From Novakomyces olei (lineage: Eukaryota), in assembly GCA_016906335.1 (NCBI GenBank), contig JADEYG010000009.1, positions 868,001 through 932,000 of the forward strand: a DNA stretch of 64,000 nt, in the 5' to 3' direction. The notes under the pieces were generated by a model. The model worked only from the letters and a program-made list of their open reading frames with translations, was not told where the DNA came from and ran no database searches. Of the stretch, positions 1-57,439 are shown in pieces. The translations under genes were made by a program, and so were the position numbers. Each line of letters opens with the position of its first letter. Positions within the stretch are counted from its first letter, which is position 1.

Positions 1-889
1 AAAGTTTCCCGTACACAAGCCCAAACTCCGCCGTGGAATCGTGCCGCGTCTACTTGCATACGCACTTTTATCGTGTCAAACGGGTGGCCAACTACGAGCT
101 TTGTCACGCCTGACGCGGTTCCCGCTATAAAGCCGCGCAAGGGCGAGTGCTGCTCTTTTGACATTTGGCCTTGATGCAAACGTATGCCTCTCTATACCGT
201 AATCTTTTTGATTATTTATATACGCGCACAGCTAAATTGGAGACGTATATTATACGAAGGAATATGAACATTCTTTGGATAAAAGTTTAAATGTGTTCAT
301 GTAAGTTTAGATATTTCCTCTACGACTTTTCACTGTTTACACGAGTACAAAGGCCTCCGCCAGCGACTGGACGCGCCATTCGAGCCGTCTGCAGTACGTA
401 ACCAAATATAATTTGAATTTATATACAATTCAAATACAATTAAAATTCAAAATACTTCAAACATACTTCCAATACAATTCAAATACAATTCAAATACAAT
501 TCAAATAATGTAATTCAAGTTCAAACATACTTCAAATTCAATCCACATTTTGTTTACGTTACTGTGGCTAATTGTTTCGGTTTTTTAAAAGGTTTGACAT
601 TACAGTGGGCCGAGCCACTTTGCAAAGTATCAGCTTCACTATACAATCCACACAATGTTATCCACAAGCCTACAAGACTATAATAATCTCCTTTTATGTC
701 TCATACTGCCCACCTTTCACGACCAATCACGGTACTTTAATTGAGACACGATAACCGACCTGCCTCCGATAGTGGAAATGACAAGACGACCAAAGTAGTA
801 CAGCCCACATTAGAAGTAGACTACCGCGATTCCCTCAATACTTTTGCCTTTGATTGCGAGCGGACGTAGAGCCGTTTGTCGCAGCCGAC

Positions 890-2209
890 ATGACTCAAGC
901 GCCGGTTCGACTAGCCGTAGTGGGCGCCGGCGCTAGAGCTAATGCCTATGCACAGTACGCGGCTCTGCACCCTGACGCTGTACACTTTGTGGCGGTAGCG
1001 GAGCCGAATGCTTATCGTAGGGAAACGTTTGCCTCAAAGTACGGTGTTGCCAAAGACCGATGCTACACGCACTGGCACGGTCTCGTAGCCGCTGGTCGCA
1101 CTGCCATTGGTGCGGCTGGAGTTCTTGTATGTACTCAGGATCAAATGCACTATGAGCCCTGTATGGCGCTCTTGGAACAAGGCTACCATGTCCTGTGCGA
1201 AAAACCCTTGGCAACAACAGAGTCCCATTGCCGAGATATAGTAGACGCAGCCGAGCGGGCGGGGACACTTTTCGCAGTGGGCCACGTGCTGAGGTACTCG
1301 CCCCACAACAAACTTTTGCTCTCGCTTTTGAGGCAAAAGGTTGTAGGCGACGTAGTCTCCATCAGCCACATGGAGCCAGTTGGCCATGAGCACTTTGCTC
1401 ACAGTTATGTGCGGGGGAACTGGCACCGAGAATGCACAAGCTGCTCAAGTTTGCTGGCCAAATCTTGTCACGATTTGGACCTGCTAACGTGTATGATGGC
1501 CGACGGCCAGGCTAGACTGGTTTCGTCTTTTGGAAGCTTGACTCATTTTAGACGCGAAGCCAAGCCGGCCGCCGCCGGGTCCGCCACACGCTGCTTGGAC
1601 TGTGCTTTTGAGCATAAATGCCCTTACTCTGCAAAACGGATATACATGGACCCCAACGCTGATGGCAGTAGTACAAATCTTAAATGGCCAGCGAATAGAG
1701 TGGTGGATACAAAAGCTGAATTGGAGTCAGCCTTACGCACAGGCCCGTACGGCCTTTGTGTTTATGAGAGTGACAATGACGTCGTTGACAACCAGCATGT
1801 CAATATAGAATTCGAAACGCCTTACGGGAAAGCTCACGCAAATTTCAGTATGGTTGCGTTTACAAGGGCTCAGTGTGTACGGAAAACGCAAATCTACGGC
1901 TCGCTTGGCCAAATTGTAGCGGATGGAGAGTCAGAGATTGTGGTTGACTCTTTTGTCACCGGCAATTCTGCTCGCTATACTGTGGAGAAACCGGGAAACG
2001 AAGCGGAGGGCTCACACGGAGGCGGTGATATGGGGTTAATGCATAGCTTTGTTACCGCTTTAAGGGAAGTGCTAGGCGGTGGTAGTGTTGAGGGGGCTCA
2101 GGCTGCTCATATAAAATGTACTCCACGCGATGTGCTGCGCAGTCATTTGCTTGTGTTTGCCGCGGAAGATAGTAGGAAGAGGTCACAAGTCAATACTCTC
2201 GACTGGTAG
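890..2209 (+). CDS. Gfo/Idh/MocA family NAD(P)-dependent oxidoreductase, GIG1-like (GlcNAc-associated)
   Basis: First ATG at 890 (ORF track starts at TTG 854). Rossmann motif VVGAGARA, EKP motif (LCEKPL), VGHVLRY, SYVRGNW, KSCHDLD, terminal HGGGD. Intronless; adjacent to GlcNAc kinase. Confidence 0.9.
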   Translation: MTQAPVRLAVVGAGARANAYAQYAALHPDAVHFVAVAEPNAYRRETFASKYGVAKDRCYTHWHGLVAAGRTAIGAAGVLVCTQDQMHYEPCMALLEQGYHVLCEKPLATTESHCRDIVDAAERAGTLFAVGHVLRYSPHNKLLLSLLRQKVVGDVVSISHMEPVGHEHFAHSYVRGNWHRECTSCSSLLAKSCHDLDLLTCMMADGQARLVSSFGSLTHFRREAKPAAAGSATRCLDCAFEHKCPYSAKRIYMDPNADGSSTNLKWPANRVVDTKAELESALRTGPYGLCVYESDNDVVDNQHVNIEFETPYGKAHANFSMVAFTRAQCVRKTQIYGSLGQIVADGESEIVVDSFVTGNSARYTVEKPGNEAEGSHGGGDMGLMHSFVTALREVLGGGSVEGAQAAHIKCTPRDVLRSHLLVFAAEDSRKRSQVNTLDW

Positions 2210-2394
2210 TGTAGTAGGGGAAAGGGTCAATTAAAGTGAATTAAAGGAATAAACATACTATTTTTATCATTATTATTATTATTATAATACAAAGCCTACA
2301 GCGCTGGCAATAATTCTGGAAAAGATAAAATCCTTTCAAGTCTATCGTTTTAGTATAAAACTATGCATACATCTATCTCCGTCATAAAAATCTA

Positions 2395-4005
2395 TCATAC
2401 ATCAGGCATGCAGCGTGCAGCTTCAGCAGCACCCAAAAGGCACTCTGTGTCTGTTGTCATTTCCAGCTCAACGCCAGCATTTGTCAGCCGGGCCAAGCCC
2501 ATACATATCCATAGTTCATCGAGTACTTGCTGACACCGGGAGAAAAACCTGGGATATTTTTCCATTACTGTTCCGGTGACAGCCACACCCACCATTTTCC
2601 CATTAACAGATCCGTTAGATGCGCCATTAAGCTTTGCCTTGCTGTCCATAGTCTTGCACTTTGTTTCAGCCTTGGCTCCCTGGTTGCTGTATTTTGTATT
2701 TAAAAGAGCAATCAGTGAGATAGCCACTAATAAACTTGCTCTAGTGGAAACGCTTTCACAGAGCAATTTAATGGCCTGCATTTCACGCGGAGTATACGCC
2801 CGATGGTTGAGTGGATGCGCCTGGAGGAAAGCTGCACTTCCGGGCCCTTCGCTTCCATAATGACCTTGATATAAATCCTCTTCTAGCTCAGCCATTAAAG
2901 CTGTAGTCAAAGCATAAGGGGTCTGCAAGGACAAAGGAAGCCCATCAAAGAGCCGAGTATTCCGACAAAGGTCAACGAGTATCAAACGAACAAGTTCACC
3001 GAGATACCGACCGCTCACCATTTGCTCAAGCGGCTGAAAACCGGGCCGTTCTAAACCCGCATCTAAAGCACGGTCCCAGGGCGACAGAGTAGGGCCACTA
3101 AACTGATCGAGTTCGGTATTTATAAGCTCAAATTCGCCCTTTTGCAGATGAAGTAAGCTCTGCTTTTGAGGGCCCAATAGACTCACGGGGTAGGAGACAG
3201 CTGCATTACAACCCGTGCCCATAATAAGCCCGACTTCAGTGAGAGGGTTCACTGCCCTCTTACTGAGTAGAGTAGCGGCAGCATCGTTAATCACCACTTT
3301 TAATTCTACTCGCAAGCCGTTTCGTTGCAGGGCTTGTTCAAAAAGCTCTCTAATATCACATCCAACGAGCTCGTCTGCCACTGTATAACCTTTCCCCATG
3401 GACATTAGCAACGCTGTCCTTGCTCCCGTCTGTTGAAGGGGAAAAGAAAAGATCAGTCCCATCGGAATAGACTCTGCCAAATCATGCTTTGCTAAAACCA
3501 GCGTGTCCTTTACACGATGAGCAATCCAGTCAAAAAACTCTGTAGCCCGGGACCGTTTAACGCCTTCTTCAACTGTCCATTTCAAGGCAATACGTACTGT
3601 TGGTTCTTTGCCGCTGAAATCGATAATAGCCGCTCGGAATGTTGATCCACCCAAATCTAAAGCCAAATAAGTACCCTTTTTTGAAGAAATCCGGTCCTCT
3701 ACAAACGTGGGCAGCATTAAACTCGGATCGTCATCAAGCGCATTCGTGCACGATCTGCGTAAGTTTGCCTCCAAGTCACAGACTTTATGCCACTGTGAAA
3801 AATCCGATAGTAATATTGCTCTAATCTTTTGCAGCTCTTGGATCAGGGGATCATCCTTATCGCACACGGAGGGCTCTGATGAAGAAGAAGCCGTTTGATC
3901 GCGAAACTGACCGTCTGTACCCCATGTATAACGCGTCTCTTCGGCTCTTGAGGCTATCGGCAGCGCTGATACTGCCGGCATTGCCGGTTTATGTTTGCTC
4001 AGCAT
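2395..4005 (-). CDS. Hexokinase family protein, probably N-acetylglucosamine kinase (C. albicans Hxk1 / Trichoderma Hxk3 type)
   Basis: MLPTFV, ALDLGGSTFR, MGLIFSFP, MGKGY, INDAAATL, IMGTGCNA, NTE, FQPLEQMVSGRYLGE motifs. ATG at 4005 (alternative 3981). GlcNAc specificity inferred from cluster context. Confidence 0.88.
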   Translation of the reverse strand: MLSKHKPAMPAVSALPIASRAEETRYTWGTDGQFRDQTASSSSEPSVCDKDDPLIQELQKIRAILLSDFSQWHKVCDLEANLRRSCTNALDDDPSLMLPTFVEDRISSKKGTYLALDLGGSTFRAAIIDFSGKEPTVRIALKWTVEEGVKRSRATEFFDWIAHRVKDTLVLAKHDLAESIPMGLIFSFPLQQTGARTALLMSMGKGYTVADELVGCDIRELFEQALQRNGLRVELKVVINDAAATLLSKRAVNPLTEVGLIMGTGCNAAVSYPVSLLGPQKQSLLHLQKGEFELINTELDQFSGPTLSPWDRALDAGLERPGFQPLEQMVSGRYLGELVRLILVDLCRNTRLFDGLPLSLQTPYALTTALMAELEEDLYQGHYGSEGPGSAAFLQAHPLNHRAYTPREMQAIKLLCESVSTRASLLVAISLIALLNTKYSNQGAKAETKCKTMDSKAKLNGASNGSVNGKMVGVAVTGTVMEKYPRFFSRCQQVLDELWICMGLARLTNAGVELEMTTDTECLLGAAEAARCMPDV

Positions 4006-4610
4006 GAAGCAGAGCAAAGCTAACGAAAAACGAGAATAGAATTCCGGAAAAATAAATAAAATCTATTCGAAAACGAATAAGAGCAGAGTCTATACAGGAA
4101 TCAAAACGGAAACCGTGAAAGAAGCGTGAAAATAAAAGCACAAGCTATCCGGCGGAGATTTTCCGAGCTATCAAAGCCTAGTCCCGCTACCCAGTGCTCC
4201 GGAGCTAAAATAGCGTTGCTAGTGTTACGGTTCGTTATGAGACAAACGCTCCCACACAATGAAGGTTAATAGCAATGAGGAGGGACTAGTTGAATAAATC
4301 AACGATATTCCGACGCTAATTTTCCAGTTTCGATTTTCCCAATTATTCGGGGGTATGTAAGGAATGAAATGTGTGCCTTGAGGCCTTTTTAGAAGCTCTA
4401 CACGCGGATCATGAGAGCCCCCGGCCGAATATTTTAGGGCCGAATTTGTTAAATAGTCGGGTGTTGCACGACATTTATGTACGCTGTAATAATTGCAAAA
4501 GGATAATATTATGCAACCATCTATCCGTTTCGTAACACATCACATGTGTACAACGGTATGCGCGTATGAAATTCGCACTAGAACTATATAATGTGGGTGA
4601 ACAGATCTGC

Positions 4611-4707
4611 GTTACACAGGGCTGTGTAACTTCACTTTCGCTAGCGTTACACTAACCCGGGCGAGGCTCATTGTTACACGAGCACGAGTATTACTTTGAT
4701 GTTACAT
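4611..4707. promoter_or_regulatory. Cluster of GTTACA(C/T) motifs upstream of the hexokinase, including a perfect palindrome at 4611-4630
   Basis: GTTACAC at 4611, 4624 (minus), 4646, 4673; GTTACAT at 4701. Further copies at 5012, 6926, 6951, 7338. Function inferred. Confidence 0.5.
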
Positions 4708-5246
4708 CGGTCTCCAATATTTTCGGGTGGGCAAAGAGATAGAGATGAAGAAATAGTGATGGAGCGGGCGAGTTTGGTGGTTTTGCCGCGCGTCGTTCTA
4801 TTGATACACGGATGCAAGACATGTGCGGAAATCGTAGTTTGTGACTAACATACTCGGGCATTCAAACCCTGATGTGTTCTGCTCTCTCGTTATGAGGTGT
4901 GCGTCATGTAGAGCTGTGACTAACATTATTCCAATACAATGAGGGTGCGCACAGGGTATGAAAGGCCCGGCCCGTCTTTGCTTAGGCCATCCGTAAATGT
5001 TTTACATCAGTGTTACATGCATATTCACAAAGGCCATCCCATTGACTGATTTACACTTTAGCTAGAGACGGTGCGATGGACTCAATTGGCACCAATGACT
5101 ATACAATACTAGCACCTGTTTGCAAGAGATTTAAAATTTATAAATTTATCCCATACGCTATCCACATTTCACTTTAATGGTTATTTAAATTTTTTTCCTC
5201 CTCCTCGCTCTCTAATGCTTTTTGGAACCAAACACCCCGTATATCA

Positions 5247-6818
5247 TCACCGCCATGCGCGCTGAGTAACACGTTCCACACGCCGACCCGCAAAATAGAC
5301 ATCCTTCACAAACCCCTCCGCGTCAAAGACAACAAGGTCAGCTCTGCCTCCTGCTTTAAGCGACCCACGGTGCGGATACTCATTCAACATCTTTGCTGGG
5401 TGCTCCGTGACACATGCGAGGGCAACGGCTAAACCAGCACCTGACCATTGTGCAAAGTTACGGACGCAAACGTCCAGTGTGACTGCGCTACCGGCAATAT
5501 TGCCTTCCTCAGCGAGCAGTAAATGACCCTCATCGTCCTTTATAATTTTCTCTCCGTTAGTCCAGTCATACGTGCCCGGAGGAAGTCCCAGCATGGTCAT
5601 GGCATCAGTGACCAAGATGGTTCCCTCAGGATTTGCATGGTGAGCCATGCTGACACAGCTTGGGTGCACATGGAAATTGTCGGCAATAATACCATAATGC
5701 ACTCGCCGAGTCATTTCTTTATCGCCCAATAACCCGAGAACCCCAGGATTACGGTGATGCATTGGGTTCATTGCATTGAACAAATGCGTAATCATACTGG
5801 CTCCACGCTGAACTGCTTCGCGTGCTTGTTCAAAGGTAGCGGAAGTGTGTCCGATGGAATATACAATCTCGCGCCGTACCAGTTCTGCAATAATTTTGGG
5901 ATCGGAGAGCAGGACTTCCGGGGCCGCAGTAATTTTACGGACAGGCCCACCATTGCGTAGATTATCTGGACCGTAGCATTCTTCTAGAGACTCAAAATTT
6001 CGTGCTGTACGAATGCATTCGCTAGCATGGATTCCCTTTTTCTGGGGCGAGATAAAAGGCCCTTCAGCGTGAACTCCCAATACGGCCGCCACGGGCTGCG
6101 AGTGCTGGCGGTCAGAATTGTTGTATGCTCAATACAAATTGAGTGCTTACCTCTCCTCCCTCCTTACTAGTGCCATTCGCTTCTCTCTTGCTTGCCTCCT
6201 GCTTTTGGCGATAAGCATCAAATACGGGCAGGACGGTTTGGTAGAGCTCCGGGCTCTGTGTCGTGATTGTCGGCATGTAAGCAGTAACACCAGACTGCAG
6301 CAAGTACCGCCCTACGTGGTCAATGCCCGCTGCGTAATTGGAGCAGTCAGTAGAGAAATCGAAGCCGAGCGCTCCGTTCAGCTGGACGTCCAGCATGCCT
6401 GTTGCCAGTTAGAAGAGTGCCAGTTAAAAGAGTGCTAGTTAGAAGAGTGCCAATTAGAAGAGTGCCAGTTAGCAGAGTGCCAATTAGCAGAGTGCCAATT
6501 AGCAGAGTGCCAGTCAGAAGAATGCCAGTCAGAAGAATGCCAGTCAGAAGAAGAGGCCAGTTAGAAGAGTGCCAGTTAGAAGAGTGCCAATTAGAACAGC
6601 CAGGCGCCAACGCCAGCGCCTAGTGTGGCTCTAGAGTACTTACCGGGAGACAGGATACACCCGGCCAGGTCTATAGTCTGCGTCGCCGCTCGAGCGTCAG
6701 AGTAAAAAGCGTCTTGCCCGTCCACGATTACTCCCTTGTCCGTGTTGACCCATACATCGCGGCGCTCAAAGACACCGCCTTCGCCGACACACTCGGCATT
6801 GGCGAACCGTACCAGCAT
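5247..6818 (-). CDS. DAC1: N-acetylglucosamine-6-phosphate deacetylase (NagA family), 3 exons
   Basis: Exons 6818-6644, 6398-6151, 6104-5247; introns 6643-6399 and 6150-6105 have GTAAG donors, CTRAC branch points and CAG acceptors. Spliced product has SPGMLDVQLNG, PTITT, GVHAEGPFI, SIGHT, THLFNAM, VTDAM, IAGS. Confidence 0.95.
6404..6598. repeat. 15-bp minisatellite (CCAGTTAGAAGAGTG consensus, ~13 copies) filling DAC1 intron 1
   Basis: Directly visible tandem units with variants CCAATTAG/CCAGTCAG. Confidence 0.95.
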
Positions 6819-7511
6819 TCTGCGATCTTTTGCGTCTACAAGATCTTTTGCTCCTGCAAAGATCTTTCTTTTGCGCCAGCAATGCCGGACTCGTCTCGAC
6901 GCGCTCTTGTACTCTTACTGGCCATGTTACACAAGCCCGTCTCGTCTAAGGTTACACTAAATGTTTGTGTGCCACCGAGTGCGACCAATCAACTAATTAA
7001 TCAATCAATTAATCAATGAATCAATTATTTATTTATTCGCAAATTATTCGTTCGCAGCGGAGAATATTCGTCATAGAACGCAAACAACGCGTCACTGTGA
7101 CCACAAAAGTATAGTCAATTTGACGCGCGACCTGTCAATCTCGACCCGAAGATTTACAGCAAACCGCCAAGCATTCTACCAAGCAGACCCGTTTTTGAGT
7201 AAACAAGCATTCCTCCCTTTCCGAGTTCGTCGTGTTGACGTGTTGCTGGCCGTAGCTGCCGACTAGTGTAGTGTAATAATTAGTGCAAAACTTTACAATC
7301 ACCAGTCTCAGTGCTGCCTCATTGCTGGCATATTAATGTTACATTGCGGGCTCATTGCTGGCGTTGGCCCAGGCTCGTAGCCGTGTCCCGTATAAAAAAG
7401 TAAAACAATAATGTCTGCTGTAGTGACCCACATTATAATAATGCCTGCCTGACGATGAGCAAGAGCTCTCACTATGCGACCACCTTGTGAGCCATAGGGG
7501 CTGCGCGCCAT

Positions 7512-10467
7512 ATGGATCCGAGTATATACAAGTAGGCTTACCCTCCGCGAGTCCAGGTCTGGCCTGTCTACTGTCTAACCTTCTACAGATGCCTCGGGCA
7601 GATGATGCTCGTCGGCTTCGACGGGTACACGGTAACGGACGAAGTACGGTCTCTAATCAAAGACCATTATGTCGGAAACATTATGCTGTCGCGTAAAAAC
7701 GTGCAGTCGGCAGTGCAGGTAATGCAATTGGTACAGGACTTGCAGAGGATCGCGTTTGATGCGGGCCACGAGTTCCCCCTGGCAGTCTCAATCGACCAGG
7801 AGGGTGGGATGATGAGCTCAATCACAGACAGCGAGAGTCTTACCATGTTCCCTGGTGGGATGGCTCTTGTGGCTACGGGGAGCAGAAGCTTGGCGGAGAA
7901 GGTTACCCAGGCAGCCGCCAGTGAGCTCCGATCACTCGGGATTTGGTGGAATTTTGCACCTGTACTCGATGTCTTGACCGACCCGACAGCCACGCTTATC
8001 GGCACTCGAGCCCTGAGCGACTCGCCCAAGACTGTCGCAGAGTATGCTGTTGCAATGATCAAGGGGATGCATACTGCCGGCGTCTCTGCCCTGGGGAAGC
8101 ATTTCCCTGGCTACGGAGCCGTTCACTGTGAGAATTTGGGTACCGCTGCGGTTACTGAGCCCCTGGAGCAGCTGGAAGTATCGAGCTTTTTGCCCTTCCG
8201 CAGCAGTATTGAGCATGGAGATCTGGATTCTATCCTGGTGGGCGCCTGTACCATGCCCAACCTCATATCAGACGGCCTGGTAGCCTGCCTGTCTGGACTG
8301 ATTGTCAAAGACATACTCAGACACGAACTCAACTTTGAAGGAATAATCGTGTCTGACTGTCTCGCCATCAACACGGTTTACGACAACTTTGGAGTACGAC
8401 AGGGCACTGTGAGCGCAGTCAGTGCTGGCTGCGATATAGTGCTTGTCTGCCGTTCCTACCACATCCAACAGGAAGCTATTTCTGCTCTTAAAGAGGCAGC
8501 TCAAACCGGAGCAATTGACGTTAAAGACATCTACACTTCATATAACCGTATAAAGCGCTGGAAACAACGCTACGTTACCTGGGATGCCTGCTTCCTGCCC
8601 GCTCAAAGGAGCCTGGACTTGCTTAGGCAGTTGCGCTCTTACAATTACGAACTAGTTACGTGTGCTTACCGCAGTGCTATTACTGTAGTCCGTGATGACA
8701 ACCATACCCTGCCATTGACAAAGCACTTGTCCCGGCCTGGCGCTACCATTGCTCTGCTTACTCCTCTAGCACTGGCGGGTCCCTATCGAACAAAAGACGA
8801 TACAGCGGCCGCCGCCGCTTTAGACTTGGCTCCTGGCGAGCTGACCTTCCGCATGTTTGGCCTGCAATTGGCACAGTACCATAAACCGGTGGAGCATACT
8901 TCTTATTCCTCTCACGGGCTCGATGATATGAGTGAAAGGCTTGTGCTGCAAGCTGATGCAGTTGTGGTGGTAACTGCTAATGCTGCTAATAACCTTTATC
9001 AGCGTAGTGTAGTCCGCCACGTTCGCGCTCTTTGCAACTGTGGCGGCAATAAGCCCATGGTGGTCATTGCCGTGAGCAATCCGTATGATTTTGCTCTGGA
9101 TGATTCAGGTATACATGATTATATTTACATTTATATTTGCATTTCTTTTTTGCATTTCTTTGTATTAATCGCAGTGTCGGTTTACCTGTGTACGTACGAT
9201 ATATCAAAGCAGGCACTTCAAGCCTGTACTGACGTCATGTTTGGCGCTCTTAAAGCAGAGGGTTCTCTGCCTGTATCCACAAAACCCAAATTGCAGCCAC
9301 CCGATCGGTTCAGACAATATGAGAATACCTGGAGCGTTGAACCCTGGACGTCCAAGCAAGGCGTTAGCGATATTGGTAAGTTAATGACCATTTGTAATAT
9401 CAAAATTTCGGCGTTTCACTTTTAACCATGTCTAACCCAAATTTAGCAAGCCTTTTGCGCGAATGCTTCCCTGAAATTCGGCTAGATAATACCCTTCTTC
9501 ATGAACTAAGTCAGCCTCGGGTGTGGTCTTGTGTGGTAAGAGACGAAAGCCAAGTCGTCGGTCTTTGTGTAACTGTCAGCATGGAGACACGACAAGTAAA
9601 TGGCTTAGTGGGTCCAACTGGCCGAGTGGCAGTTTTGGCTGTACGTCCCTCTCATCGGCGGCAGTTCATTGGTCAAACTCTTCATCACGCTGCTCTTAGA
9701 CATTTGTTTCGGTCACGTAACGTTTCTCGGGTGGGATTTGCTTACGAATACGTGCTGTTATTGCCTCCGCCATTATTACGAAAGTGTTCGCAAATGCTCC
9801 AGTTTCTGATCGCACAAGAATGGCATATTGAGGGAGCGCTTGATTTGTTTAGTATAGAGCGGCTACCACAATGGCAGCCGCCCTTACAGCAGCTGGAAGA
9901 GTGTAGTAATCAGGATATAAAATTCATCAACGGGTCTGACGAGGTTCTCATGCAGATTTTCACGCTCATGTATGCTTATAGCGATACAATTATGAGCCTG
10001 TTTTTGGATATTGTTGAGACTACGGATCTCGATAATGTCATTCTTGCCATACACAGTAAGTGATTGGTCATGCTAACCTGTCTTTATTCTTTTTTATTTA
10101 TCGGTTAATTTTCAATAGTCCTTTAATATTTATATACTTTCTTCTATTTACTGATACAATAGGTGACCACGAAATAGCCGGTCTCATTGTGACTGCAAAA
10201 ATTCTGGATGCGCCTAATGTAACTAGCGTTGGGCGTGTGCACTCGCTGAATTTGTTTTCAAAAGACAAGCTTGTATACGATCTTGCTGCTATTGGGCTTT
10301 TAGTCTCCGCTGTGATGAAGCTGCAAAAGCAGGGATACGATGAGTGCTTTCTCGAAGTCGTCAATGAAAAGCTGCCCGATATGCTGTTTGAAGAAGTGGG
10401 ATTTGGTGGCCGAGTGCGAATGCCCGTCCTTTCACGTTACTCGGGAGAGTTTCATTTCGTGCACTGA
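7512..10467 (+). CDS. NGS1: GH3 beta-N-acetylhexosaminidase-like domain fused to C-terminal GNAT region; NGS1-like GlcNAc sensor/acetyltransferase
   Basis: ATG 7512; introns 7532-7588, 9109-9174, 9376-9446, 10056-10162 restore one frame (MDPSIYKCLGQMMLVGFDG...). GH3 motifs IDQEGG, NFAPVLD, KHFPG, LRHELNFEGIIVSDCL, AGCDIVL, NPYD; GNAT motif A-like VLAVRPSHRRQFIG. Divergent from DAC1. Confidence 0.85.
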
Positions 10468-32383: not shown

Positions 32384-35300
32384 CTAACATTTCCAAAGCA
32401 ATTTCATCGCACGGGGCACGCTTCCCTGGCACTGCAGTAAAGCCTGCTTTGACTGCTCCTCACCAAACTGACCCGTGCCCATAATGTATTGTAATTTCAC
32501 AGAATAAACTGCATCCTGCGCCTTTCGCTTCCAGTCCTGTGCCACCCTTTCAAATATCCGCTGCTTCTCCTGTGGATTCACAGTTTTAACCCTAACCCTA
32601 AATGAACCCGTAACCGGTCTGTGGTCAGACAAGTAAATCTCGTGCCGATTATAGGCAGCACACGTGACCGTGTCCTCCGACTTCCACAGAATCCGATCAC
32701 ACCAAGCGGGAACGCGAAACTTTTCACTGCTGTCATACGTGTCTGTGCCCACATCGTACTTATAAGTTGGAGCAAAGCTTATCTTTGCCTCCGTAAACAT
32801 CCGCAATCGAAGCATCGGGTTACGTTTCCGTTCAATCGTTAATTGGTCCAGTTCCAGCAGCCTATCAATGTCTCCAGCCTTAATTTTGTCTTCCACATGG
32901 CTTCTCTTGCCGGCAATTCGATAATTCAAGTCTCCGTTCCAGAAGCAAACTTCATGGTCCAGCACCATTGATCCATCGCCCCCACCAGTGAAGATATTAT
33001 TACGAATTGCTTCGTTCCGCTCGGGCTCCAGAGTACTTGACTCTAAGATTTCGATAGCATTTGCATTTCGAGCATTTAAAGCATCTTGCCCTGCAGCTAA
33101 ATGTGCATTTACAAAGCACATCGACGTGTCCTCGAATATAAGACGGGAAACTAATGCTCCTTTGTTGCCTAGCACACCAGCAAAACCAGTCTTGACTGTA
33201 GTAGAACGAACACCCCGCATGGAAGGCAGATTAGGTTGTTTAACAAAGATACAGGTGAAAAGCCCCACAAGCTGTGCAGTGTGAACGTGCTCATACGTAT
33301 TTTCATTAATGCTACCGCTATTTTCCAAATCACGCATGGCCTGAATCAGGTAATCCCGCCAGTGTTTGTACTGGTGGGATAAAAAATCCTGAATTTCTCC
33401 ATTATCGTTCTTTTTCGATGTAAGAAGACTTTTGGCCGTGAGCTTCTTGTCTTCCAAATCAATCAGCTCTTGGAATCCAAACACGACAACGTCTGGAGCC
33501 GGTGATGCGCTGACAAAAGACACCAGGTCTACGTCAGAGGCGACAGGTGGCCTTGCTGCTCCCACATTATAGGTACATATAGCAACGTTAATGTCTTTAA
33601 AACTGCAGTACTGTGATTTTCTTTGCTTCATTTGCTCTTCAAGCCAATCGTCCATTAGTAACCCGTCCCAAAGCTTGATCTCGCCGCCACTTCCACCCGA
33701 CATTGAGACTACTTGAATGCGTTTGATTCGCCATAGGCAAGACACGTCGACGCAGAGTGTAATTTGTGAGTTTTTATGTGCTCTCCACTGTTTCAACAAT
33801 GTCCATGAGAAAGAGTTATCACAATTATCATTATCATCATTGTTATTAGTATTATCATTAGTGTTAGTATTATTACTGTTGTTAGCATTATTGTCATTGT
33901 TTTCATTTTTATCCTTATTATTATCATAAGGAGAATATACGCAGATATGCCCATTCTCATGAGACACCCACAACGCCTCGTCGACTACTGCCATTGATGT
34001 GATGCCCTGGCCAAAAAGATTTATTGAATAAATAAAGGCCAACTGTGATTTAGAGTAAACGGAAACGTTCCCGTCTTCATGGCCGAAATAAACTTCGTCC
34101 CGGCCGGGCCAAATGCAACCAGAAGTAATTGCACTGTTCACTTTAGGTGCAGAAAGAGGCTTTGACCCTACTTTGAAAAGGCTCAGTGTATGTGCTCCGG
34201 CTTCCGGGTCAAATATCTTAATTTGTCTTCCAGATCCCACCCATAATTGGCCGCCCACGCAAAGAGAAAACGAATGCTTCGGGCCGAGACGGAAAGAATG
34301 TGCCGGGCTGCTCATATCAATCTCGGCTGGTGATGCCGAGGCCGAGGCCGAAGCCGAAGGAGCTGGCAGGCTGCTCTGCCATACTAAAAGCCGTCCGCTC
34401 TCATCGATGCTCAATACTTTTGTTGGAGTATTCAGAATGCGTACAACTGGAGCGCGATGCGAATGCATTTGCCTGGCCACAACCATTCGCTTCGCAATAT
34501 CCATTTGCCATAACGAACCGTCTTTGAACCCTAGCCAAACAGTGTTTTGTGCAGGAGTTAAAGAAGCTGAATCTCCATCGTTCGCATCAAAAGGCGATCC
34601 TACAAAGGCGATGGCAGTGCACTTTGTAGCGTCATGATTAACTGTCCATACAAGTGTCCCTGAATTTGCATTGTAAACCTGAGTAAATGAATGGAAGGCC
34701 ACACATATAAATGAGCCTGAAACTGCTAGTAAACGGGCTTCCCCGTTTACATTAAAGGGTATCTCTGACACGAACTGTTTGCCAAATACCGGGGGTCGAC
34801 GATTGACGTGAGTAGCATCTGGCGGAGAAAGAACATACCCGTTTGAAGTGAAATAAGGGCCAGAATTATTAATGTTAATGCTGGCGTTTGAGGCGAGAGT
34901 TGGCTCTTCCGTTACAGACTTTGTATGAGCCAAAAAAGCAGCTGAAGAGGCAGGCACCTCAGGATTAATCAACGAGTTTGCTATATGTGATGAAGGAGTA
35001 GGAGGAGGCCGAGGAAATTCACGTTTTATAAAAGTTGTAGATAGAGTATCTGCAGGGCCATTATTACGTGAAACTGCTGAAGTAATAGCCGAATTTTTTG
35101 TAATGGAAGCCTTTCGATCAAGGTCGACTCGACGAGGAGGCGGAGGCAGAGGAGAAGAGCCCTGTAGGGTCGAAGAAGGTAGAGGATGAGAAGAAGGAAG
35201 AGGATGAGAAGAAGGAAGAGGAGGAGGATGAGAAGGAGATTGAGAGTTTGACAGCAAAGGCATGGAAGAATTGCTCAGAAAATGAGACGGGAGAGACTGC

Positions 35301-56567: not shown

Positions 56568-57439
56568 TCACACCTTAACAGCCGTGCGACGAGTGAAGAA
56601 AGTGCGAACAATAACTACTTGGAGAGCAGAAAGAGCAATCATCAAAGCAGATCCCACGAGAGAGAACCAAAAAATACGGGACTCGGTTGACCGGACGGTG
56701 GCAAGGTTACGGTTTTCCCGTGTGCGAAAGTATTTCTGACTTCGGGAAATCGAAGTTACCTGACTGGCCAGTTTAAGCAGACTCTCTTCGATTTCCGAGG
56801 TCTTTGCTTGAGGTACGCCTGGTTTGAGAGGCAGTTCGGCACGGGGCTCGTTTTGGAGCTATTGTGACTTGAGCAAATGAATAGCAAATAAATAATAACG
56901 AGACAAGGCCTGTATACCAGTCATAAAGCCTTGTGCTGGTGATAGAAAGAGAAATAATGAAAAGAGAATAATTAAAAAGACAAAATAATAAAAAAGGAGA
57001 CAAAATAAAAAGCGAGAATCAGGTCAAATTTTGTCGAGCTAAAGACTTACTGCAATCTCAAAGTCGACCAGTTTATCCGTCACTGTAGACATCTCATTCG
57101 AGAAGCAAAATTCATATTCTCCCGGCATTACAGCAGAAAAAACAATATCTCGCTGCCGCTCTTTACGCCCGTCCGCGACAATGCCTCCTTGAGGGTCGCG
57201 TACTGTGAAATCAATATCAAAAGCACCGCCTTCTTGCACCTTTTGTACAGTTAGAAATCAATTGATTAGCGATGCCTTACCGCGAAAAAAAAGGCTATTT
57301 TCTCGCCAACTTTATCCGCGTGTGTATAAAAACATGAATGCTCATTTGATCCCACATTATAAGTTAACGCGGTCGCGTATACGCGCACAGCAAACGCGCA
57401 AAGCGAAATTGCTGCACTCGCCACGGCCTTTCCAATCAT
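56568..57439 (-). CDS. p24/EMP24/GOLD family cargo receptor (Erp-type), 3 exons
   Basis: Signal peptide MIGKAVASAAISLCAFAV; GOLD CFY...FAVQEGGAFDID...YEFCFSNEMST; QKYFRTRENRNLATVRSTESRIFWFS; TM helix; VRTFF tail. Confidence 0.9.

Follow-up and report, generated by a model that had tools for sequence, protein, structure and literature searches.

A 64,000-nt window of the Novakomyces olei genome (the window being the whole stretch of DNA that was analyzed) carries four contiguous genes, which encode an oxidoreductase of the Gfo/Idh/MocA family, a hexokinase-family kinase, a deacetylase (DAC1) predicted to act on the 6-phosphate of N-acetylglucosamine (GlcNAc), and a two-domain GH3-GNAT protein. 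Our reading, to which we assign a probability of roughly 0.72, is that the window holds part of a GlcNAc cluster of the known ascomycete type, and that the oxidoreductase is its neighbour. An earlier note on this DNA had taken the four genes together as a GlcNAc module; this interpretation is right for three of them, the kinase, DAC1, and the GH3-GNAT gene, which form a known kind of cluster. All start codons, introns, and exons referred to below are predicted from sequence and homology. The assignment of the three proteins to the HXK1/NAG5/hxk3, DAC1, and NGS1/nag3 types, already made in that note, is borne out by a tree, by structure-database matches, and by residue checks, and the pathway that they encode is most likely GlcNAc utilization, as judged from orthology. 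The contiguity of kinase, deacetylase, and sensor genes, in the order ngs1(nag3)-dac1-hxk, has already been described (Kappel 2015, Su 2016), and the locus therefore adds one more example of a known layout.

In the pathway that we propose, the GlcNAc-type hexokinase would phosphorylate imported GlcNAc to GlcNAc-6-phosphate (GlcNAc-6-P), from which Dac1/NagA would take off the acetyl group to yield glucosamine-6-phosphate (GlcN-6-P). The GH3-GNAT protein would serve as an Ngs1-type sensor, whose NagZ-like domain, devoid of the catalytic dyad, would bind GlcNAc; this binding would activate the C-terminal acetyltransferase at those promoters where a factor of the Ndt80 family recruits the sensor.

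The hexokinase-family kinase

Searches of a structure database report matches of the kinase with solved single-domain hexokinases at 108-127 bits (127 for S. cerevisiae Hxk1 and 108 for Hxk2). Its best single-domain relative in the sequence database is the unnamed protein P0121 (56-59% identical), followed by Pezizomycotina proteins of 470-570 residues (230-258 bits), among which P0162 bears the database name "N-acetylglucosamine kinase 1". The 400-660-residue representatives out of 150 cluster representatives, eight named ascomycete matches, and the window protein were used to compute a 123-row tree, with shorter, longer, and two-domain proteins left out. In this tree, the kinase and P0121 fall in a 63-row clade (SH-like approximate likelihood ratio test, SH-aLRT, 99) that also comprises all eight named ascomycete proteins, including P0162. 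P0489 belongs to a separate 54-row clade; its matches with solved single-domain hexokinases and glucokinases (of plants, yeasts, animals, and a protist) are mostly at 216-268 bits, as compared with only 165-171 bits for P0162 against the yeast hexokinases. The earlier note had asked whether the kinase groups with glucose hexokinases; since it lies outside the canonical 54-row clade, this objection falls away. Alignment with human HK1 indicates that the residues of the sugar and ATP sites are retained, and the kinase therefore looks catalytically competent. HxkC and HXK3 are given as orthologues of C. albicans Nag5 in excerpts of Kappel 2015 (PMC4950302). We assign the kinase, on the basis of the tree, to the dedicated GlcNAc-kinase type (hxk3/NAG5/HXK1), a tree in which no biochemically characterized GlcNAc kinase stands.

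The deacetylase and the GH3-GNAT protein

With exon 3 of DAC1 alone, 10 out of 10 distinct structure-database sequences matched are NagA proteins, the best of them being human AMDHD2 (7nut, E 1.7e-53). Exon 2 carries the motif DVQLNG, which we take to be the E. coli/human-type motif that replaces HxH. The gene is thereby predicted to encode a GlcNAc-6-P deacetylase of the NagA/Dac1 type, and it adjoins the kinase gene, as in published GlcNAc clusters.

The closest solved relative of the GH3-GNAT protein is RmNag from Rhizomucor miehei (4zm6, E 1.7e-71), which has the same two-module architecture. In the sequence database, it comes nearest to ascomycete GH3+GNAT proteins of 800-930 residues (Patellaria, Aulographum, Kalaharituber), the identity being 33-39% for the GH3 query, with 37-39% for the best of them, and 31-36% when the whole spliced model is used. 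The hallmarks of the Ngs1/nag3 type, as given in excerpts of two papers (PMC5063960, PMC12176254), are a lost catalytic dyad, a conserved Lys-His pair, and a conserved GNAT motif A. The excerpts of Su 2016 (PMC5063960) assign K175/H176 as the GlcNAc-binding sites of CtNgs1, describe the Asp-His dyad as essential for NagZ catalysis, report that V686 and G696 of CaNgs1 motif A contact acetyl-CoA, and state that an Ndt80-type factor tethers Ngs1 to promoters. In the window protein, the GlcNAc-binding Lys-His pair is retained, KHFPGYG aligning with KHFPGHG of RmNag. The aligned stretch reads KHFPGHGDTATDSH in RmNag and KHFPGYGAVHCE-N here, so that the catalytic Asp-Ser-His (DSH) kept by RmNag is replaced by Glu-Asn (E-N) in a loop that is one residue shorter; Asp-x-His is also absent from the dyad-aligned stretch in all 12 relatives that were aligned. 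At the position of the RmNag and NagZ nucleophile, the window protein retains the aspartate (SDCLAI), whereas 8 of the 12 relatives have Glu. Motif A of the GNAT domain, VRPSHRRQFIG, has its Val and Gly 10 residues apart, the spacing of V686 and G696 in CaNgs1. With its GH3 domain carrying the Lys-His pair, its lost dyad, and its GNAT motif A, the protein is assigned to the NGS1/nag3 type by these residue signatures.

Promoter motifs

The divergent promoter region that DAC1 and the GH3-GNAT gene had been said to share is indeed present, the predicted starts of DAC1 (6818, minus strand) and of the GH3-GNAT gene (7455, plus strand) being divergent with 636 bp between them. CRCAAA, which resembles the core of the Ndt80 middle sporulation element (MSE), occurs six times in this spacer, that is 9.4 per kb as compared with 1.56 per kb window-wide (six-fold). 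There are two such sites upstream of the kinase and none in the 698-bp region upstream of the oxidoreductase. The enrichment between DAC1 and NGS1 would be compatible with control by an Ndt80-type factor.

The 9-mer CCCACATTA is present in 5 copies in the window (804-812, 4589-4597, 7427-7435, 33561-33569, and 57351-57359; TA follows in four of the five), as compared with 0.4 expected, and none of 100 shuffles reaches 5. In 207 of 2000 Markov shuffles, some 9-mer is likewise common to all three upstream regions of the oxidoreductase, kinase, and NGS1 genes, so that the three-way sharing lacks significance; CCCACATTA is therefore weak evidence and a lead only, and it may belong to promoters of this genome in general. 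Another sequence, GCAAAAGATC, repeated in the DAC1 leader, was rejected as an enriched motif, with 8 matches in the window for 7 expected.

Relation to known GlcNAc clusters

According to excerpts of Kappel 2015 (PMC4950302), GlcNAc clusters occur in all three subphyla among 18 ascomycetes surveyed, as far as Saitoella, and nag3 and ron1 are often found in them as additional genes. Su 2016 (PMC5063960), in the excerpted text, reports that Ngs1 orthologues often lie inside the cluster in Pezizomycotina and that this is not the case in C. albicans. The Trichoderma reesei cluster nag3/ngs1-hxk3-dac1-dam1-ngt1-ron1, as excerpted from PMC4950302 and PMC12176254, resembles the locus in that the kinase, deacetylase, and GH3-GNAT genes are contiguous. 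It differs in that dam1/NAG1, ngt1, and ron1 are absent from the 64 kb here, and in that an unrelated oxidoreductase adjoins the kinase. The position of the GH3-GNAT gene inside the cluster is likewise that of Pezizomycotina clusters, with CRCAAA enriched between DAC1 and NGS1 in the present case. In C. albicans, excerpts of PMC3551598 and PMC5063960 describe HXK1-NAG1-DAC1 together with unlinked NGS1, NGT1, and GIG1; the enzymatic steps and the type of sensor are the same, and both C. albicans Ngs1 and the window protein have the NagZ catalytic His replaced while keeping the KH pair and GNAT motif A. The linkage is the opposite one: here NGS1 is linked and has a promoter region in common with DAC1, whereas the deaminase is unlinked.

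The earlier note had supposed an apparently early-diverging yeast; the named proteins nearest to the kinase and to the sensor, at only 34-39% identity, are from Pezizomycotina. The locus extends the known cluster to a lineage in which identity with the closest named ascomycete proteins is as low as ~31-39%, in a variant layout in which sensor and deacetylase have a common promoter region and the deaminase is unlinked. Such an extension can help annotation and studies of cluster evolution, and is unsurprising; the oxidoreductase is the sole potentially new element.

The families Glucosamine_iso, NDT80_PhoG, and MFS have no match in the 64-kb window, either among the 17 open reading frames (ORFs) of 200 residues or more or among 88 additional ones with a minimum of 70 residues. 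The absence from the window of GlcN-6-P deaminase, transporter, and Ndt80-type regulator, pointed out in the earlier note, is confirmed by this Pfam analysis. Its description of a "self-contained sense-and-catabolise module" does not hold, as the window lacks a deaminase, a transporter, and the Ndt80-type factor by which Ngs1 is recruited; these would have to be encoded elsewhere in the genome. Published GlcNAc clusters are often split too, as exemplified by A. nidulans in the excerpted literature.

The oxidoreductase

The oxidoreductase gene is intact and its product displays a glycine-rich loop, an EKP motif, and a KSCHDLD motif. The features of the Gfo/Idh/MocA family are all found, namely an N-terminal Rossmann fold with the glycine-rich loop, EKP, and a C-terminal α/β domain. 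In an alignment of 14 sequences, G12, G14, and E104-K105-P106 are invariant, as are Cys193 and the CxxCx5C triad Cys235/238/244; the latter is carried by an extra segment of ~80 residues that is absent from solved Gfo/Idh/MocA relatives. The cysteine cluster may be a metal site, judging from this conservation. An AlphaFold2 model has a predicted local distance difference test (pLDDT) score of 86, and Foldseek analysis of it reports family members with a probability of 1.00, all of them generic sugar/inositol dehydrogenases at 13-18% identity. Compared with glucose-fructose oxidoreductase (1evj/1ofg), scyllo-inositol dehydrogenase (5yab/6ktj), the NAD-dependent glycoside hydrolases (8qc2), and levoglucosan dehydrogenase (6a3g), the protein has in common the Rossmann domain, the α/β dimerization domain, EKP, and the histidine of KSCHDLD; it differs from the solved enzymes by its 13-18% structural identity and by the ~80-residue CxxCx5C segment. 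In NCBIfam, the oxidoreductase reaches no equivalog cut-off; the best match is UDP-GlcNAc 3-dehydrogenase (69.6 bits for a cut-off of 450), over the Rossmann half only. An ESM Atlas search returned only generic Gfo/Idh/MocA clusters, a metagenome scan returned a single 2-kb locus (37% identity), and loosely aimed literature searches turned up nothing pertinent on the family.

The best 120 of 7803 significant homologues are 35-50% identical and belong to Basidiomycota, Ustilaginomycotina, chytrids, Kickxellomycotina, a few animals, and Actinobacteria; no ascomycete is found among the named proteins of these 120. The family as a whole ranges over fungi, molluscs, a springtail, a fish, Actinobacteria, Chloroflexota, and Asgard archaea, with identities of ~35-50%. 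In a tree of 70 rows (30 named and 39 unnamed of the best 120 homologues and the window protein), the oxidoreductase groups with P0001 and P0008 (SH-aLRT 99) inside a clade of 28 fungal rows (SH-aLRT 99) that includes chytrids and Basidiomycota, and the named bacteria sit in the other clade. The gene is therefore long established in fungi and was not acquired by recent transfer, and we regard it, from this tree, as inherited vertically within fungi; its product belongs to an uncharacterized family of sugar-type dehydrogenases that occurs widely in bacteria, archaea, fungi, and animals.

A scan of prokaryotes for relatives of the oxidoreductase returned at least 600, from which 80 loci were kept; with a filter on GC content at third codon positions (GC3), 10 of the 80 were dropped for having no gene called on the match, leaving 70 usable loci, in which neighbours were counted within three genes on each side and proved heterogeneous. 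The commonest family is that of sugar ATP-binding cassette (ABC) permeases (15/70 loci), followed by ROK proteins (11/70, nine of them directly upstream) and sugar/solute-binding proteins (10/70). GH20 β-N-acetylhexosaminidases are found in three loci, Actinophytocola by their record titles, and two-domain GH3 enzymes in three as well. In Asgard archaea and other lineages, the neighbourhoods are unrelated. The solute-binding protein of the bacterial operons scores 28.9 bits with the NgcE model, for a cut-off of 399.65. These neighbourhoods point to a carbohydrate substrate, not to an amino sugar in particular.

A side observation concerns five Streptomyces loci (L026, L028, L033, L042, and L059), in which a conserved protein of ~750 residues is encoded directly upstream of the oxidoreductase. 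A sugar ABC transporter follows the oxidoreductase in these loci, and an IclR regulator flanks them. The ~750-residue protein has no match in Pfam, NCBIfam, or the structure database.

The earlier note had labelled the oxidoreductase "GIG1-like", which could not be confirmed. In excerpts of a 2019 review (PMC7151181), GIG1 (GlcNAc-induced gene 1) is described as a gene without known function, and the reviews, as excerpted, report it to be conserved in fungi and unlinked to the NAG regulon. Neither a sequence nor a domain assignment of Gig1 was found in the excerpted literature, which for the T. reesei orthologue provides the identifier TRIREDRAFT_54819 alone (PMC12176254). The parallel between the window protein and C. 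albicans Gig1 goes no further than the suggestion made in that note, and the lack of named ascomycetes among the best 120 homologues weighs mildly against the label.

Alternative explanations

Several points weigh against the reading of the locus as a three-gene GlcNAc cluster with an oxidoreductase as its neighbour. The co-induction of the kinase, DAC1, and NGS1 and the non-induction of the oxidoreductase that it entails are putative. The CRCAAA count uses the Ndt80 MSE consensus, which may not be the site of the factor of this organism. The stop codons of the oxidoreductase gene and of the adjoining kinase gene are 185 bp apart; copies of CCCACATTA precede the oxidoreductase, kinase, and NGS1 genes, always in gene orientation; and the bacterial relatives often belong to sugar-uptake loci, as seen from the ABC permease, ROK, and solute-binding counts, with GH20 beside them in 3/70. 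The name of the GlcNAc-kinase clade comes from one database name together with the orthology statements of Kappel 2015, CaHxk1 and TrHXK3 being absent from the tree. The kinase could be an ordinary glycolytic hexokinase or glucokinase in a coincidental neighbourhood, as its two hexokinase Pfam domains and the retained glucose- and ATP-site residues of human HK1 would allow; its place outside the canonical hexokinase clade, its scores of only 108-127 bits against solved single-domain hexokinases, and its tandem arrangement with DAC1, which matches published clusters, make this extremely improbable. We hold it very unlikely, if less so, that the GH3-GNAT protein is an active β-N-acetylglucosaminidase like RmNag, freeing GlcNAc from chitooligosaccharides, and not a sensor. 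RmNag is its closest solved relative and the nucleophile aspartate, a Glu in most of the aligned relatives, is kept, but the dyad histidine, essential in NagZ enzymes according to the excerpts of Su 2016, is replaced by Asn in a shortened loop, and similarity to ascomycete NGS1/nag3-type proteins (420 bits) exceeds that to RmNag (244 bits).

The remaining alternative concerns the fourth gene. The oxidoreductase could be a true member of the GlcNAc regulon, an ancestral cluster component lost by most Ascomycota, and perform NAD(P)-dependent redox chemistry at C1 or C3 of GlcNAc or glucosamine, of their phosphate esters, or of a side product such as N-acetylmannosamine. Such a membership, which we consider unlikely, would agree with its adjacency to the kinase and its intact catalytic motifs (EKP, KSCHDLD), with the sugar ABC/ROK loci of its bacterial relatives (~15/70) and the three GH20-linked ones, with CCCACATTA being common to the three upstream regions and over-represented in the window, and with UDP-GlcNAc 3-dehydrogenase being its best NCBIfam match. 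However, this match is far under its cut-off and confined to the Rossmann half, a common 9-mer is also obtained in the Markov shuffles, the GH20-linked loci, all Actinophytocola by titles, may be one event, and the bacterial solute-binding protein falls far short of the NgcE cut-off. Such a gene is not listed in the published fungal GlcNAc clusters examined, as excerpted, and a term search of Kappel 2015 finds no oxidoreductase or dehydrogenase named as a cluster gene. Upstream of the oxidoreductase, the gene at 3-191 (minus strand) encodes a mitochondrial carrier, so that no GlcNAc gene lies directly to its left; as the carrier gene is divergent, the oxidoreductase 5' region is common to it and not to a GlcNAc gene. 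The linkage had earlier been taken to implicate the oxidoreductase in amino-sugar redox metabolism, a proposal that its edge position, the lack of a promoter in common with a GlcNAc gene, and its 0 CRCAAA sites, as compared with 6 in the DAC1-NGS1 spacer, do not sustain. A role in amino-sugar metabolism is possible by adjacency alone, and most likely the oxidoreductase is a neighbour and not a member of the GlcNAc regulon. The stronger proposal, that it is a deeply conserved, Cys-cluster-bearing amino-sugar redox enzyme of the GlcNAc module, whose linkage preserves an ancestral fungal arrangement, appears distinctly unlikely. If true, it would provide the first substrate class for a whole uncharacterized family (chytrids, Basidiomycota, Kickxellomycotina, animals, Actinobacteria, Asgard archaea), and fungal GlcNAc metabolism would gain a redox branch. 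Proof of a link with amino sugars would matter, since the family is large, conserved at ~35-50% identity across bacteria, fungi, and animals, and without assigned function.

Gene models and surroundings

Pfam matches and spliced models place the four genes where the earlier note had located them (Table 1). The oxidoreductase and kinase genes are convergent, and the kinase and DAC1 genes lie in tandem on the minus strand.

Table 1. Features of the locus, with positions in the window
Feature	Position	Strand	Basis or remark
Mitochondrial-carrier gene, 5' part	3..191	-	Pfam Mito_carr E 6.2e-9; ORF crosses left window edge; outside cluster
Gfo/Idh/MocA NAD(P) oxidoreductase, 439 residues, single exon	890..2209	+	Pfam GFO_IDH_MocA (PF01408) E 5e-21; cluster edge, membership putative
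Hexokinase-family kinase, predicted GlcNAc-kinase type (Hxk1/Nag5/HXK3), single exon	2395..4005	-	Pfam Hexokinase_1 E 1e-38, Hexokinase_2 E 7e-47; tree
Spacer from DAC1 stop codon to kinase start codon, 1.2 kb	4006..5246	.	Without recognizable ORF
DAC1/NagA, predicted GlcNAc-6-phosphate deacetylase, 426 residues	5247..6818	-	Amidohydro_1 (5247-6092); structure-database matches
15-nt tandem repeat, 12.8 copies, in DAC1 intron 1	6403..6596	.	Tandem Repeats Finder
Divergent DAC1/NGS1 promoter region, 636 bp	6819..7454	.	6 CRCAAA sites
Predicted NGS1/nag3-type GH3-GNAT protein, 888 residues	7455..10467	+	Pfam Glyco_hydro_3 + Acetyltransf_1; RmNag match

The Pfam matches of the kinase lie in 2395-3981, the first in-frame ATG being at 4005 and the second at 3981 (528 residues from the second). 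The DAC1 model comprises three exons (6818-6644, 6398-6151, and 6104-5247) separated by canonical GT..AG introns. The GH3-GNAT model comprises five (7455-7486, 7589-9108, 9175-9375, 9447-10055, and 10163-10467), also with GT..AG introns. A first Pfam pass on ORFs located Glyco_hydro_3 in 7602-9425 (plus strand) and the GNAT domain in 9428-10063 (plus strand); on exon-true frames, Glyco_hydro_3 is found at 7590-9107 (plus strand, E 1e-68) and Acetyltransf_1 at 9449-10054 (plus strand, E 6e-6).

To the left, the mitochondrial-carrier gene and the oxidoreductase gene diverge from a common spacer of ~700 bp. The right neighbour of the GH3-GNAT gene encodes an MBOAT acyltransferase and is followed by housekeeping genes, including those of DNA ligase, dynamin, GTP cyclohydrolase I, a septin, and USP7.

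The spacer between the DAC1 and kinase genes is unusually long. It is presumably the kinase promoter, and its single ORF of at least 70 residues (4228-4539, minus strand) returns no Pfam match. Two cluster introns possess a branch-point-like CTAAC motif near the acceptor, on its upstream side. Intron 1 of DAC1 (245 nt) consists mostly of the 15-nt repeat units (88% match), each of which bears CTAAC on the gene strand, and it therefore offers about a dozen potential branch sites.

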